A DNA stretch of 64,000 bases from Octopus vulgaris (lineage: Eukaryota), in assembly GCA_951406725.2 (NCBI GenBank), contig OX597823.1, forward strand, positions 33,790,001 through 33,854,000, written 5' to 3'. Positions 17,195 to 61,540 of this stretch are shown here, piece after piece. Below the pieces are notes generated by a model. It did no database searches. It worked only from the letters and a program-made list of their open reading frames with translations, and was not told where the DNA came from. The position numbers were made by a program, and so were the translations under genes. The first letter of the stretch is position 1. Each line of letters starts with the position of its first letter.

Positions 17195-17695
17195 CACTAT
17201 TTACATTTGACGGATATTTGCTCTCATCTTGTTTGTTGTTAACACAACGTTTCAGCTGATATACCCTCCAGCCTTCATCAGGTGCCTTGGGGAAATTTCA
17301 GACCTGGGTCCTCATTCCTAAGGTACTTTTTGATGTTGTTGTTGTTATTATTATTATTATTATTATTATTATTATTATTATTATTATTATTATTATTATT
17401 ATTATTATGCCCATGGACATATGGCGTAGTGGTTAAGAGCGCAGTCTACTGACCCCAATATTCTGAGTTCAATTCCAGGCAGTGATCTGAATAATAATAA
17501 TAATAATAATAACATTGAAAAATACCTTAGGAATGAGAACCCAGGTTCGAAATTTCCCCAAGACACTTGATGAAGCTGGAGGGTATATCAGCCGAAACAT
17601 TGTGTTAACAAAAAGCAAGATGAGGGCAAATATCCGTCAAATGTAAATAATGTAAATAATTTACATAATTCCTCATCACTTAAATATAGAACTGT
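17195..17695. mobile_element. tRNA-head/hammerhead element as an inverted pair (copy 2a minus 17195-17407, copy 2b plus 17415-17695)
   Basis: The two bodies are reverse complements around the tRNA-like head GGACATATGGCGTAGTGGTTAAGAGCG..GTTCAATTCC. Confidence 0.9.
17241..17286 (-). ncRNA. Minimal type I hammerhead ribozyme, intact core
   Basis: GGCAC-CUGAUGA-A-GGCUG..CAGCU-GAAA-CG-UU-GUGUU: stems I and II pair, palindromic stem III ACGU, GUU site. Confidence 0.8.
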
Positions 17696-18057
17696 ATAGA
17701 TAATCCAGTCTGATTTGGTGTGGTTTTCTACAGCTGGATGCCCTTCCTAATGCCAACCACTCTAAGAGTGTAATGGTTGCTTTTACGTACCACTGGCACA
17801 GGTGCCATTTGCGTGACACCGGTATCTGCCATGATAGTGATTTTGCCTGGCTTGATGGGTCTTCTTCTCAAGCATGACTAATGCCAAAGCTGTTGGTCAT
17901 TGCCTCCATGGGGCCCAACACTGGAAACGAACTCACCTACTTTGCTTCTGTGAGGCCCATTATTCTTACAAATAATAATGTTAGTGGCTGCGAATGTAAA
18001 AGCCGTATAAGCAAAATTAATAATTATATATAAGATATATAAATATATTTATATATT

Positions 18058-18186
18058 TACTAGGGTACTACATAAGCAGCAGCTTTGCTAGAAATAGAAG
18101 TTAAAATACTTCTAAGCCACAGAGGAATCACTAAATTAATATAGGCATGATAGGAAAAATAGCAGGTGCTTATGTAGTACCCTTGT
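18058..18186. repeat. Short inverted-repeat element carrying the GCTAGAAATAG hairpin motif
   Basis: AGGGTACTACATAAGCA / TGCTTATGTAGTACCCT arms in an AT-rich flank. Confidence 0.75.
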
Positions 18187-18244
18187 ATATATAAATATAT
18201 TTAAATATATTATATATATTATATAATTATATATATATATGTAT

Positions 18245-18638
18245 AATTGCAGTGTGGAAGGTGTTTATAAGCCATTTAAAAACACACAAAAACTGTTAAA
18301 TTCACTTCAACATTTAAATTTAATTTGCCAAAATATTTTCATTGCTTTGAGACCGCAACCTGTTCACTGACAAAATTCCATGCAGCACAGAATTTTGTCA
18401 GTGAACAGGTTGCGGTCTCAAAGTGATGAAAATATTTTGGCAAGTTAAATTTAAACGTTGAAGCGAATTTAATGGTTTTTGTGTGTGTTTTTAAATGGCT
18501 TATAAATAATTAAACATTTATAAAATAATTATTTTCTAAGGAGTCAGAGAATAATTAAAAAAACAAAAAAAGGTGAAGTGAATTTATGGTTTTTGTGTGT
18601 TTTTAAATGGCTTATAAGCACCTTCCTCACTGCAGTTG
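18245..18638. mobile_element. Fold-back PLE-like terminus with two mirrored variant hammerheads (18325-18373 minus, 18395-18443 plus)
   Basis: About 115-bp arms around an ~11-nt loop plus a re-duplicated tail; UUGUCA-GUGAACA-G-GUUGC..GCAAU-GAAA-AUAU-UU-UGGCAA. Confidence 0.75.
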
Positions 18639-19162
18639 TTTTCATTCCAGCACATGATCTCAGATCAGGTCACTTGCTATGCAAGTGCATCTCCATAATA
18701 TAATATATATATATGCATACAATTATATATATCAAGTATAATTATTACACCAACTTGCTGAAATGTATGTTTTCTATAAAGCAGTGAATACCAAAACCTG
18801 TTTTCTGTATGTTATTATCATTGTGATATATATACAATTGTTTTTCTTTTGGTTTCTGTCTACCAAATTTACTTCCAAGTATTTGGTCAGCCTAGGGCTA
18901 TACTAGAAAACACTTGCCCAGGGCACAATGTAGTGCAACTTTGCTCAAGGCCATGTGGTTGGAAAGCAAACTTCTTGAGCACATGGCCTCACCTGTGCCT
19001 ATGCATCAATATATTAACAGCTGTGCCAATACATTCAAATGTATGCCATTAATATAATGTATTAAAATATAATACAATACAACATAATGTTGTATAATTT
19101 GTTTCTAACTGCAGACCTTGAAGTAGATAAATAATATTTTCATGTCTCTCAAAATTTCTCAA

Positions 19163-58912: not shown

Positions 58913-59198
58913 CTGTTGCATATATTTTTATCCTGATTGGCTGATATACTTCTCATGGCACTCTGGGCATCTACTTTTCCATTGTTGTATGAGTCAGACA
59001 AGGGTGTGCCAGAACAGAGTCTTTGATTGATAGATGTTCTTCCAGTCACCAACTCATACATGTTTCTAATTAAGGTAATAAATTCCCGATCTGCCAAATA
59101 ACTTACTGGTCGGACATTTTTAAGTGAAAAATCGGAAACAAGCGACACCAGATGAATATAAGGCTTTTGTTTATAAAGACTACACAACTTGTCAAGAT
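58913..59198 (-). CDS. Internal coding exon of an unidentified host gene (286 nt, phase 1 to phase 2)
   Basis: Acceptor TGTCATTTGCAG, donor CAG|GTAAGA, fully open frame DLDKLCSLYKQKPYIHLVSLVSDFSLKNVRPVSYLADREFITLIRNMYELVTG..KNICNR, stop immediately after the donor, non-repetitive. Confidence 0.65.
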
Positions 59199-60134
59199 CT
59201 GCAAATGACACATTGATTACAAATGTATTGTAATCATGAGTGAACATATGTAAGCAAGGATATACATACTCACACAAATATGCTCTCTCTCTCTCTCACA
59301 CACACACACACTTACAGATACATATGTACACATCCAATGAACTTTCAGTTTTTGTCTTTCAAATTCACTCACAAGGTTTTGTTTGCCCCAAGGCTATATT
59401 ACAAGACACTTGTCCTATATGCCATGCAATTGGACTGAAGCCAAAAGCATATGGTTGAAATTAACACCTAAACACAGCCATGCGTGCACCAGTATATATA
59501 TATATATATATATATATATATATATATATATATATATATATATATCTGTGTGTGTGTGTGTGTGTGTGCTGAATGACCAAACGATGTCAGTATTAATCTT
59601 TTCCTGTTAAAACAAATTACATGGTTCTCCACTGCAAAGTTCTGAGAGATACTTCAATTTAATGTTCAGCTGTTTTTTCGTAAAACTCAGCACATAAACA
59701 TGTACATATAAATATTTATATCTGTCTGTCTGTATGTATGTATGTGTATGTGTGTATATATATATATATATATATATATATATATATATAGGTTGAAATA
59801 TGTGGAAAACATAAAAAGTGGAAGAGAAATGCTTTCATTTCACATAGTTTAATATCTTTTTATAAAGAAATAAAAAAAATATATATACATAGTTTAATAT
59901 GTATATAAATATATATATATTCACATGTGTGTGTATATTTATACATAAATACATACATATATATATATATATATATATATATATATATACACACACACAC
60001 ACATTATTTTCATCACCATTATCGTTGACATATATATATATATGTATATAGATATATGCATGCGTGTGTGTATATATATATATGTGTGTATGTATGTATT
60101 TATGCATGTATGTATGCATGTGTGTGTGTGTGTT

Positions 60135-61200
60135 TGTGTGCCCTTCTCTATACATTGGGCAAACAGGATGGCGCTTGACTGACCAGTTCGCGGAACACCT
60201 CCAAGACATCAGACTTGGCAATGACACCCTGGTCTCGCACTATTTCCACTCTGCTGATTACTCTTTGTAATACCTGTCCGTGTTCAGATTGTCCTTGCAC
60301 AGGAGCATTCCAGACTCCTGTTTGCCCTGTGAACAGGGATTAATCTTCTCTCTTTTCTTCTTTGCACCACATGGGCTCAACTCTCCTCCCCTCTTCATCT
60401 AACCTCCTCCCCTTGCCTCTCTTCCCTCACACCTATTTCCTCCCACCCACCTACCCACCTCTCCTCTCTTGCTCTGATTCCTACTTCTCTTCATTCCTAC
60501 TCTCCTTCTCTCTTCTCTTCACTCCTACCAACCTTCTCCTTCCCTCTTCATTGTCACCCCTCCTTCGTAACCCTACCCCACCCCTACACATTATACCCCC
60601 ACCTTCCTATCCACCCTACCCCACCCATTCCTTACACCCACACCTACTTACCCCACCTCCACACCACCCTCAGCCTAACCCACACCCCACCTTTGCTTTC
60701 CCCACTCTCACCTCCCCACCTCCCAATACCATCACACCACACCACACACCACTACACCTTACACCACCATACCACACAACACATCACATTACAACACACC
60801 ACCACGCACACACCAGCACTGACCACTTCCCAGCCCCACATTTTCACACCTTCACACACGCACACACGTCAAGGTCACCAGCCCTCTTCCACATGCACAT
60901 ACATACTCTCTTATACACACACACGTGCGCCTTCGTTTTGAGATCACCATTACTTTCTTATCTCCCCTTCTTCCTAGCTCTCCTGTGTGACCCTTCTGTC
61001 AGGCATTCGTCATGATAGATCACTAGCCACTACACATTCTTTATTTTCTCTCCTTGTTTCTTTCTGTGTTTCTTTCTGTGGAAGTGCGTAGGCTCGAAAC
61101 GTAAAAGACTTTTTCACTTCCTGAGCATTATACTAATACATCTGTTTGTTGTCTACACCACCTGTCTTCGTCTTGTTTTCTTGTGAATTCTTCCCCTATA
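60135..61200 (+). mobile_element. Neptune-like PLE 3' end: GIY-YIG remnant, C-rich tract and HHR-like motif (61071-61108); related tail at 30295-30450(-)
   Basis: CPSLYIGQTGWRLTDQFAEHLQDIR..VSHYFHS..EQGLIF..APHGLN; UCUUU-CUGUGGA-A-GUGC GUAG GCUC-GAAA-CG-UA-AAAGA. Confidence 0.82.
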
Positions 61201-61379
61201 TGTATGTATGTATGTATGTATGTATGTATGCATGCATTTATGTATGTATGCATTTATGCATGTATGTATGTATGTGTGTGTATATGTATGTATGCATTTA
61301 TGCATCTATATATGTATGTGTGTGTGTATATGTATGATGTATATATGTATGTATGTGTGTATGTATTTCTGCATAATAA

Positions 61380-61540
61380 GAATGCAACATGTTTCAGCTA
61401 AATGGTCAGCATGGTAAAAATTATAGTCACGAGCTTCAGAATTTAATTCTGGTCGACCTTCATTAAATGGCAGCTGATGAAGCCTACAGCTGTGTCTTTT
61501 CACTAAGCTGGCCAATTTGCTGAAACATGGTTCAGCTTTG
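61380..61540 (+). ncRNA. Degenerate hammerhead-like motif with an inverted partial copy
   Basis: CUGAUGA (61474-61480) AGC..CAGCU..AGCUG..GCU GAAA CAUG; 61381-61410 mirrors the 3' half (GAAACAUGUU). Confidence 0.5.

Follow-up and report, generated by a model that had tools for sequence, protein, structure and literature searches.

The window analysed here, 64,000 nucleotides of Octopus vulgaris DNA (contig OX597823.1, positions 33,790,001 to 33,854,000), contains seven complete hammerhead motifs, one further motif with an intact core, seven relics and two doubtful sites, together with decayed remnants of Penelope-like elements (PLEs). Seven sequence families were distinguished (A to F and J). 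Families A to F, each used as a query, gave no cross-matches; the family J motif at 38.7k was not a query and was matched by none. All seven complete sites are type I hammerheads, with C3UGANGA9, G12AAA15, U16.1-H17 and three helices, and with their 5' and 3' ends in stem I. This full arrangement was not found at 18.4k, 33.9k or 61.4k or in the relics.

An initial annotation had counted about 15 motifs, a figure that holds when relics are included but not for complete sites, and at least eight independent families; several are indeed independent, but seven are supported. All 11 stem III strings that it named were found at their positions. Five belong to complete motifs (17281-, 31344+, 52520+, 53314+ and 55205-), while the other six comprise the 50.4k motif with a broken stem I, two decayed motifs, the two doubtful sites and a DNA foldback at 18.4k. 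It had not named the complete motifs at 52839- and 38705+, the latter non-palindromic, or the relics at 10290+, 17567+, 35346+, 30.4k- and 56016+.

A decayed Penelope-like ORF, RT followed by a GIY-YIG end, occupies 46996..48370 on the + strand, and its 3' end recurs inverted at 46791-46967. A Penelope-like GIY-YIG C-terminal fragment with a 3' end lies at 58642..58972 (-). For the PLE remnant, a full phmmer search returned 392 homologs at E<=0.001, with RVT_1 and GIY-YIG in nine of the 12 long homologs chosen, and tblastn gave E 5e-43 at 47.0-47.6k; word-index protein searches, Pfam and PDB returned nothing for it. The GIY-YIG C-terminal profile matched only at 47.9-48.2k, at 58.7-59.0k and, weakly, in a low-complexity stretch at 60.1k. 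In this profile scan of the window no hammerhead family directly adjoins a PLE ORF remnant, and the 3' ends of the ORF remnant at 47-48 kb have no intact core, only a stem-I-like pair, GAAA and ..UGU-A. Among the 217 non-low-complexity window ORFs of at least 58 aa submitted to Pfam, the only matches at or above the curated cut-off were RVT_1, HTH_48 and a PHD-like match, whose ORF is read as a LINE remnant.

Hammerhead families and their relics

Family A includes two complete minimal hammerheads, at 17241..17286 (-; stem III ACGU, extra A after A9, H17=U) and 31341..31382 (+; stem I of 3 bp, ACGU, H17=U). Three further copies are elements on the + strand. The first, 10046..10430, consists of a tRNA-like head, (AAT)n, a decayed hammerhead (core at 10290, GAAA lost, ACGU changed to AUGU) and an AT-rich tail, with an inverted piece of the head directly upstream. 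The second, 17410..17697, has a tRNA-like head, stands head-to-head with the 17.3k copy and carries a decayed hammerhead (C3U, ACGU changed to ACAU). The third, 35150..35447, retains an intact core at 35346, with U16.1 changed to G (ACGG). The palindrome is lost in three of the five copies, in two of them via CpG-type changes. A CTTAGGAATGA segment upstream in this family was considered as a second core and rejected, having no match to CUGANGA.

All five head matches at E<0.05 fall at family A sites, and the head, whole or partial, lies directly upstream in four of the five copies. The A/B-box pattern is present in the heads at 10056 and 17422; ARAGORN reported no intact tRNA in the window, and the exact family A pattern had no match in metagenome contigs. 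Family A looks like a SINE that has a tRNA-like head and a hammerhead at its tail, and we lean slightly towards its mobilisation by PLEs. Sm-alpha and Sj-alpha of Schistosoma are described as SINE-like retroposons in which a promoter is followed by a hammerhead (PMC6765202 and PMC6155905). Family A resembles them, on those descriptions, in that its hammerhead stands behind a tRNA-like head that matches the A/B boxes, but its motif is a loop-less minimal one behind an (AAT)n spacer, whereas the schistosome motif is canonical type I, and it is dispersed rather than tandem in the window, with PLE-type inverted ends. No published description of a SINE that combines a tRNA-like head, a minimal hammerhead and inverted ends of PLE type was found in a limited literature search.

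Family B, unrelated in sequence to family A, is represented by a minimal relic at 61071..61108 (+), with ACGU and A6U in the core (61076), and by a more decayed relic at 30317..30420 (-; nhmmer E 8.8e-9 to the 61.1k copy). Family F, at 50326..50372 (-), has an intact core, stem II, AGAUUU and H17=C; its stem I (50366-) retains only one contiguous pair, disrupted by the adjacent inversion in a 200-bp foldback (50260-50459). Family J, missed in the initial annotation and present as a single copy in the window, is a complete type I hammerhead at 38700..38747 (+) with a non-palindromic stem III, ACU-CGC-AGU, and H17=A. An extra nucleotide after A9 is present in A, B and F and absent from C, D, E and J, and the 10.1-11.1 pair is G-C at 31.3k and G-U at 17.3k and 50.4k.

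Families C, D and E share stem II regions of 51-63 nt and stem III palindromes of 8-9 nt. Family C is a complete motif at 52512..52598 (+) with stem III ACAGCUGU, H17=A, a stem I of 8 bp and a stem II region that spans 52 nt and has U-U at the base. Family D is complete on both arms of a foldback, the left at 52765..52843 (-) and the right at 53310..53389 (+), each with ACAAAUUGU and H17=U; its 'FKPLAL' frame was considered as the end of a PLE ORF and rejected, no profile matching it. Family E is complete at 55119..55210 (-), in the left arm of a 1.4-kb foldback, with a 63-nt stem II region, ACUAUAGU and H17=A. Its relic at 56314..56405 (+) has stem III ACAAUUGU, H17=G, and G5C and G8U in the core (56319); the 177-bp arms bearing the two palindromes are 91.5% identical. 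A shortened copy at 55991..56068 (+; core at 56016) lacks the 3' half. Stem III had been described as loop-less, which fits ACGU only; for the palindromes of 8-9 nt, closure into 2-3 bp around a loop of 3-4 nt is also feasible. Among public sequencing runs searched with 52.4-56.5k, 20 of the 24 rows listed share part of the region and none half of its words; no RNA run is among those listed.

Relation to Penelope-like elements and other hammerheads

The motifs were scanned with a type I descriptor (core CUGANGA or a U3-A8 variant, stems I and II of at least 4 bp, palindromic stem III), which gave five matches in the window and none in 40 local dinucleotide shuffles. The strict descriptor without the palindrome requirement gave six matches, against a mean of 0.18 (maximum 2) in 500 shuffles. 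Five of these six are palindromic, compared with 15% of chance matches; palindromic matches in the 500 shuffles averaged 0.028 (maximum 1). With stems relaxed to at least 3 bp, eight window matches stood against 0.83 per shuffle. The hammerhead motifs are real and of an already described kind, and their earlier assignment to type I with palindromic stem III, of the PLE dimer type, is supported.

Minimal hammerheads of PLEs have an extra nucleotide, a palindromic 15.2-16.2, a stem II helix of 7-8 bp and opposite-strand pairs at ~100-700 bp, and occur mostly as single motifs (Cervera & de la Pena 2014, PMC4209133). The motifs in the window are likewise type I with loop-less or short palindromic stem III and short stem I, and they too belong to many sequence families. 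A, B and F share the extra nucleotide that follows A9. The motifs are mostly single, with opposite-strand pairs a few hundred bp apart (286, 475 and 1114 bp). Palindromic 15.2-16.2 and loop 3 were found at six of the seven complete sites, the exception being 38705+. Inverted shortened arms lie beside A (10.0k, 17.2/17.5k), D, E and F, the usual layout of PLE insertions (PMC8557442). Unlike PLE hammerheads, C, D and E have stem II regions and palindromes of the lengths given above, families A and D have U at H17, J lacks a palindrome, and no intact PLE ORF adjoins any motif in the window. The literature searches made yielded no published description of PLE minimal hammerheads in cephalopods, although the supplement lists of PMC4209133 and PMC8557442 may include them.

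Folding energies bear on the dimer requirement. In families C, D, E and F the computed dimer gains -7.6 to -15.9 kcal/mol over two monomers; family A shows no such advantage (+1.7 and +3.1 kcal/mol). Forming stem III within a monomer costs +2.1 to +2.9 kcal/mol. A dimer requirement like that of PLE hammerheads is predicted for the first four families but not for family A. Self-BLAST of the window revealed no direct tandem copies, and none of the 131 TRF rows is a 150-450 bp tandem unit with a hammerhead. The repeat-type dimeric hammerheads of newt, ASBVd and Aedes, with a dimer stem of up to 10 bp, also vary in palindromic stem and loop III across ribozymes (Perreault et al. 2011, PMC3088659), but are described from tandem repeats, whereas copies in the window are dispersed or inverted and have no partner in cis.

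Taken together, the excess over shuffles, the palindrome share, the extra nucleotide, the inverted arms, the PLE remnant, the decay and the pairing energetics point to a PLE-type dimer system. The seven complete and about eight decayed motifs in seven families are likely (a probability of roughly 80%) dispersed terminal parts of Penelope-like retroelements and of non-autonomous elements that depend on them, of the known dimer type and predicted to be mostly silent in place. A known mechanism may apply to these families: where two copies stood in tandem on a transcript of the source element, pairing of their palindromic stem III and an exchange of stem I arms would build a double hammerhead, which would cut out unit-length RNA. 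Self-complementarity of stem III is what enables identical copies to pair, and the palindrome would be retained for that reason. With the outer A-U fixed by the core and C-G next in nearly all sites here, the inner letters could drift, so that palindromes would come to be shared between families or to differ within one, and tandem arrangement and stem I would weigh as much as stem III in the choice of partner. After single or inverted insertion, motifs left partnerless would decay, including by CpG loss within ACGU. Several observations count against this explanation, namely the lack of a family tied directly to a PLE ORF, the coreless 3' ends of the PLE remnant, the 38.7k motif, which needs no dimer, the long stem II, the unfavoured family A dimer and the lack of an Rfam hammerhead match.

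An alternative that we consider unlikely is that C, D, E and J are monomer-active hammerheads of dispersed non-LTR retrozyme monomers, with a stem III of 2-3 bp, a small loop and the palindrome a leftover. The loop closure available to the 8-9 nt palindromes and the non-palindromic loop of J would fit, and PMC7229834 describes both invertebrate retrozyme hammerheads that cleave as monomers with a 2-bp stem III and tetraloop, and a U-U at the base of stem II in axolotl HHR_Amex2. Retrozymes are also non-coding, low-GC type I hammerhead repeats thought to be moved by PLEs (PMC7229834), and solo monomers occur spread along chromosomes (bioRxiv 10.64898/2026.07.22.740005). However, their definition rests on tandem arrays in which every unit carries a hammerhead, of which the window has none, the stem III cost and computed dimer gain favour dimers, and the foldback layout fits PLE insertion. 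Because the same preprint derives retrozymes from PLEs, this alternative is close kin of the PLE explanation.

Stem III palindromes and the choice of dimer partner

The initial annotation had called the palindromes family-specific and suggested that they could restrict dimer cleavage to members of one family. In its full form, such a code would also act in trans between dispersed copies or inside host pre-mRNA. In part the computed energies agree, as each stem III homoduplex is more stable than any heteroduplex. The ACAGCUGU homoduplex reaches -11.1 kcal/mol against -2.2 or weaker for its heteroduplexes, and the margin is slight for ACAAAUUGU with ACAAUUGU (homoduplex -3.4, against -2.6/-3.2 kcal/mol). 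Two changes in stem III separate the family E arms, and each arm still has a perfect palindrome; inner palindromes in C, D and E would arise by chance at ~1e-3 (three families, with thresholds that we chose).

Nevertheless, such a code is improbable. ACGU is common to the unrelated families A and B, family E has two keys, the keys of D and of the E relic cross-pair nearly as well as that of D with itself, and 38.7k has none. A search of metagenome contigs with the ACAGCUGU palindrome pattern (eight of 64 parts scanned) returned at least 116 loci, and one of 118 matches had hammerhead stems; this match is a hammerhead unrelated to family C that nonetheless carries ACAGCUGU. The palindromes are thus not family-specific. 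Stem I pairing, furthermore, spans 0-3 bp across families and 3-8 bp within the five families other than J with an intact stem I. Since stem I is swapped between partners in the dimer, it alone would bar mixed dimers, and restriction to the own family needs no palindrome code. Heterodimer tests or family-specific motifs may already be described in Lunse 2017 or Arkhipova 2017.

The window also has no complete same-family pair of motifs on one strand, and for four of the seven complete motifs folding predicts sequestration in a long duplex with their own antisense arm (74/82, 75/83, 84/93 and 45/47 nt). No host-gene domain was found in the 217 ORFs, a screen that would miss short exons. These results lend no support to the suggestion that host pre-mRNA crossing the window would carry several such motifs.

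More doubtful still is a narrower version, in which the 8-9 nt palindromes of the AT-rich, long-stem-II hammerheads would serve in self-recognition and evolve through compensatory pairs of changes (in family E, ACUAUAGU/ACAAUUGU), each change splitting a family into lineages that no longer cross-cut; same-lineage copies could then meet in trans and cut host transcripts. The E relic is no longer functional in sequence, and the changes in its core and H17, with one of those in stem III, lengthen a rod-like hairpin as well, so that the palindrome swap in family E is a single event open to explanation by template switching.

Doubtful sites and significance

Two sites pass at no descriptor setting. 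The one at 33893..33934 (-) has a U3-A8 core variant, ACUAGU, a stem I of 5 bp and a stem II out of register, and adjoins a 24-bp tandem repeat with which it shares words. The other, 61380..61550, is a degenerate inverted pair whose + arm has a core but ACAUGG, and whose - arm has ACAUGU but no intact core. The 18.4k site was rejected as a hammerhead: it is a 245-bp DNA foldback (18264..18506), 90.6% self-complementary, with AAUAUU on both strands; it folds into a single long hairpin (z -16.6), and no core is correctly positioned in it. The match at 27259+, obtained at stems of at least 3 bp, is at chance level and no relatives of it were found. The abundant SINE-like ends at 28.5k (GAAAC..GU-A) were likewise rejected, having no 5' core. 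No Rfam hammerhead model was among the 150 shown of 154 window matches at E<=1, and at E<=10 none was found in 50.2-56.5k (27 of 27 matches) or 38.6-38.9k (five of five), the output being microsatellite and hairpin noise only.

Chance matching in AT-rich, foldback-rich DNA, which is true of 18.4k, probable for 27259+, 33.9k and 61.4k, and in keeping with the 1.2 matches per shuffle at the relaxed setting of the first scan and with the Rfam result, is refuted for the complete motifs by the strict counts in shuffles. Recurrence of the motifs in register within repeat families also counts against it, as does 38.7k, whose own post hoc thresholds were reached in two of 2000 shuffles, and it is extremely improbable overall.

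As recently as 2020, a review (PMC7761336) described the in vivo role of these motifs as a mystery. A palindrome code, if true, would provide a mechanism for the splitting of retroelement lineages, but the window argues against it. A tRNA-headed SINE with a minimal hammerhead, if PLE-partnered, would be a modest new pairing of a SINE with its partner. The findings add one more animal genome to those with dimer hammerheads of the known PLE type and supply natural variants, with 8-9 nt palindromes, very long stem II and one non-palindromic motif, for testing dimer partner choice; with these sequences, the question of stem I versus stem III is cheaply testable.

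Hammerhead motifs in the window

We scanned the window with a type I hammerhead descriptor requiring a perfect core and at least 4 bp in stems I and II, with local dinucleotide shuffles as the control. When a palindromic stem III was demanded, five matches were found in the window and none in 40 shuffles; without that demand there were six, five of them palindromic, versus 0.18 per shuffle, 15% palindromic (500 shuffles). Motifs and palindromes therefore both exceed chance, and the shuffled comparison proposed in the initial annotation places the window well above its control. 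All 11 stem III strings named there were found after GAA, where it had placed them. Its count of about 15 hammerheads holds only when relics are included, the tally being seven complete motifs, family F with an intact core only, and seven relics identified by homology. Several families do coexist, but seven are supported rather than at least eight independent ones. The hammerheads are real, were partly miscounted, and are of an already known kind.

Complete motifs belong to family A at 17281 (-) and 31344 (+), both with stem III ACGU, the latter meeting the descriptor only at 3 bp; family C at 52520 (+; ACAGCUGU); family D at 52839 (-) and 53314 (+), both with ACAAAUUGU; family E at 55205 (-; ACUAUAGU); and family J at 38700-38747 (+; 38705), with a non-palindromic 3-bp stem III (ACU-CGC-AGU) and a GUA site. 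Family J, previously overlooked, has one copy in the window, and 2 of 2000 shuffles reached its thresholds, which were picked after J had been seen. Its hammerhead lies antisense to a LINE-like fragment (38080-38688, -), abutting the fragment's 5' end. The family F motif at 50366 (-; AGAUUU) keeps an intact core, with stem I broken by an inversion. The sites at 33.9k and 61.4k gave no match at any descriptor setting, and that at 18.4k was rejected as a 245-bp foldback whose RNA folds to a single long hairpin.

Stem III palindromes and partner choice

The idea that stem III palindromes are family-specific fails both ways, since one is common to unrelated families and two occur within one family. 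ACGU is common to families A and B, which otherwise share no sequence (no cross-match in the homology search), and the family E foldback arms carry ACUAUAGU and ACAAUUGU despite 91.5% identity over 177 bp. Stem III of family J has no palindrome. ACAGCUGU recurs in metagenome locus L004, in a hammerhead that alone among 118 pattern matches passed the stem filter; L004:151-184 (-) is a canonical-sized type I hammerhead with stems I and II unrelated to those of family C.

The palindrome is gone in three of five family A copies (AUGU, ACAU, ACGG), with CpG-type changes in two, as expected from neutral decay. In family E, both stem III changes are compensatory, which, counter to our own reading, would fit selection for dimer pairing; the swap is, however, a single event, located in a dead arm (56314-56405, +). 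There, changes in the core, at the cleavage-site nucleotide H17 and at one stem III position together lengthen a rod-like hairpin, and nine differences fall in ~91 nt of motif, with fewer in the near flanks. Template switching could be responsible.

By the known architecture of double hammerheads, A15.1 of one copy is paired with its partner's U16.1. The two copies thus contribute jointly to every active core, one providing the 5' arm of stem I and the other the 3' arm. Contiguous stem I pairing (matrix without J) spans 3-8 bp within families A, C, D and E versus 0-2 bp across families, except for one 3-bp case. Stem III homoduplexes are computed to be more stable than heteroduplexes, although D and the second E palindrome come close. 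Restriction to the same family is thus predicted to be a by-product of both helices, with no dedicated palindrome key. The proposal that palindromes limit dimer cleavage to their own family is unlikely, as stem I would already separate families (0-3 versus 3-8 bp).

By secondary-structure energies only, the dimer gains 7.6-15.9 kcal/mol over two monomers for C, D, E and F and is not favored for A. Minimal hammerheads of Penelope-like elements (PLEs) have low activity, dimers included, according to PMC4209133, and the Fig S8 legend of PMC3088659 describes several ribozymes with a palindromic stem/loop III and a 10-bp stem in the dimer. Titles and abstract openings of the non-subscription literature found contained neither a homo- versus heterodimer test nor an octopus hammerhead survey.

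Surrounding repeats and crossing transcripts

The window has 36% GC and abundant microsatellites and interspersed repeats, presumably a cephalopod-like landscape. Near-perfect DNA foldbacks (possibly MITE-like or inversion products) lie at 18264-18506, 32810-33025, 36600-36847, 44447-44720, 63363-63773 and 10989-11066; those at 44.4k and 63.4k apparently have sequence words in common. At the end of an abundant SINE-like repeat (28404-28701), a short hairpin is followed by GAAA, a variable 6-mer (ACAUGU, ACACGU) and A-AAAGA, an arrangement likened to a hammerhead 3' half with the 5' core missing. A Mos1-type HTH match (22094-22447) lies in a Tc1/mariner-like remnant (22036-22867), and we take 49078-49996 and 51383-52288, 53650-54455, and 41222-41545 to be Tc1/mariner-like as well. 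LINE ORF remnants, presumably RTE/CR1-like, occupy 11044-12101 (+; RVT_1 match at 11044-11433), 56590-57105 (+; PHD-like match at 56590), 21731-22075 (-) and 38080-38688 (-). A 15-bp-based minisatellite (25384-25971) has a higher-order repeat of ~218-233 bp, and tandem duplicates of 87 bp (20153-20335) and, within the family E element, 61 bp (55265-55389) are present.

The expectation that a host pre-mRNA crossing the window would contain several such motifs found no backing: a search of 217 ORFs in the window detected no host-gene domain (short exons would escape), and no two complete copies of one family share a strand. The plus strand carries complete A, J, C and D motifs, and the minus strand A, D and E, plus the intact core of F. 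Transcription reaches the antisense arm before the motif in both arms of D, in E and in A17.3, the family A copy at 17.3k; in the minimum-energy fold, most motif nucleotides are paired outside the motif (74/82 and 75/83 in D, 84/93 in E, 45/47 in A17.3). Only the family J motif might be able to cut alone.

Probable Penelope-like origin, and family A

A decayed RT and GIY-YIG ORF at 46996-48370 (+) has 392 homologs at E ≤ 0.001 (47.0-48.2k). Twelve long homologs, hand-picked from 150 among these, contain RVT_1 in 11, GIY-YIG in 10 and both in nine; tblastn of the homologs returned 47.0-47.8k and 58.7-59.0k in the window. HTH_animal occurs in the Atlas look-alikes (39% and 70% of their members), as does RVT_1. 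The ORF belongs to a PLE that bears an endonuclease; its type is probably Neptune/Nematis, given the homologs' Cys-rich linker and PMC8557442.

Two further PLE 3' ends lie at 46791-46967 and 58642-58972 (both -). All three ends retain a stem-I-like pair, GAAA and ..UGU-A, with the core absent; just past the end of the PLE ORF sits a hammerhead-like layout without an intact core. This partial layout is only suggestive of a link to the hammerheads. No hammerhead family in the window directly adjoins an ORF remnant. What connects the hammerheads to PLEs is therefore their motif features together with their inverted, truncated layout, each of which has been described for PLEs (PMC4209133, PMC8557442).

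Family A elements (10046-10430, 17410-17697, 31203-31466, 35150-35447 and 17185-17408) have a tRNA-like head with A/B-box matches. In a search across the window, all five matches to the head at E < 0.05 fell at family A sites, and it stands, whole or partial, directly upstream of the (AAT)n tract in four of the five copies. The family has the appearance of a tRNA-headed SINE in which an (AAT)n spacer leads to a minimal hammerhead tail, and its inverted ends are of PLE type. It resembles the schistosome SINE-like elements (PMC6765202, PMC6155905) in its promoter and hammerhead layout, and is possibly a SINE mobilized by a Penelope-like element.
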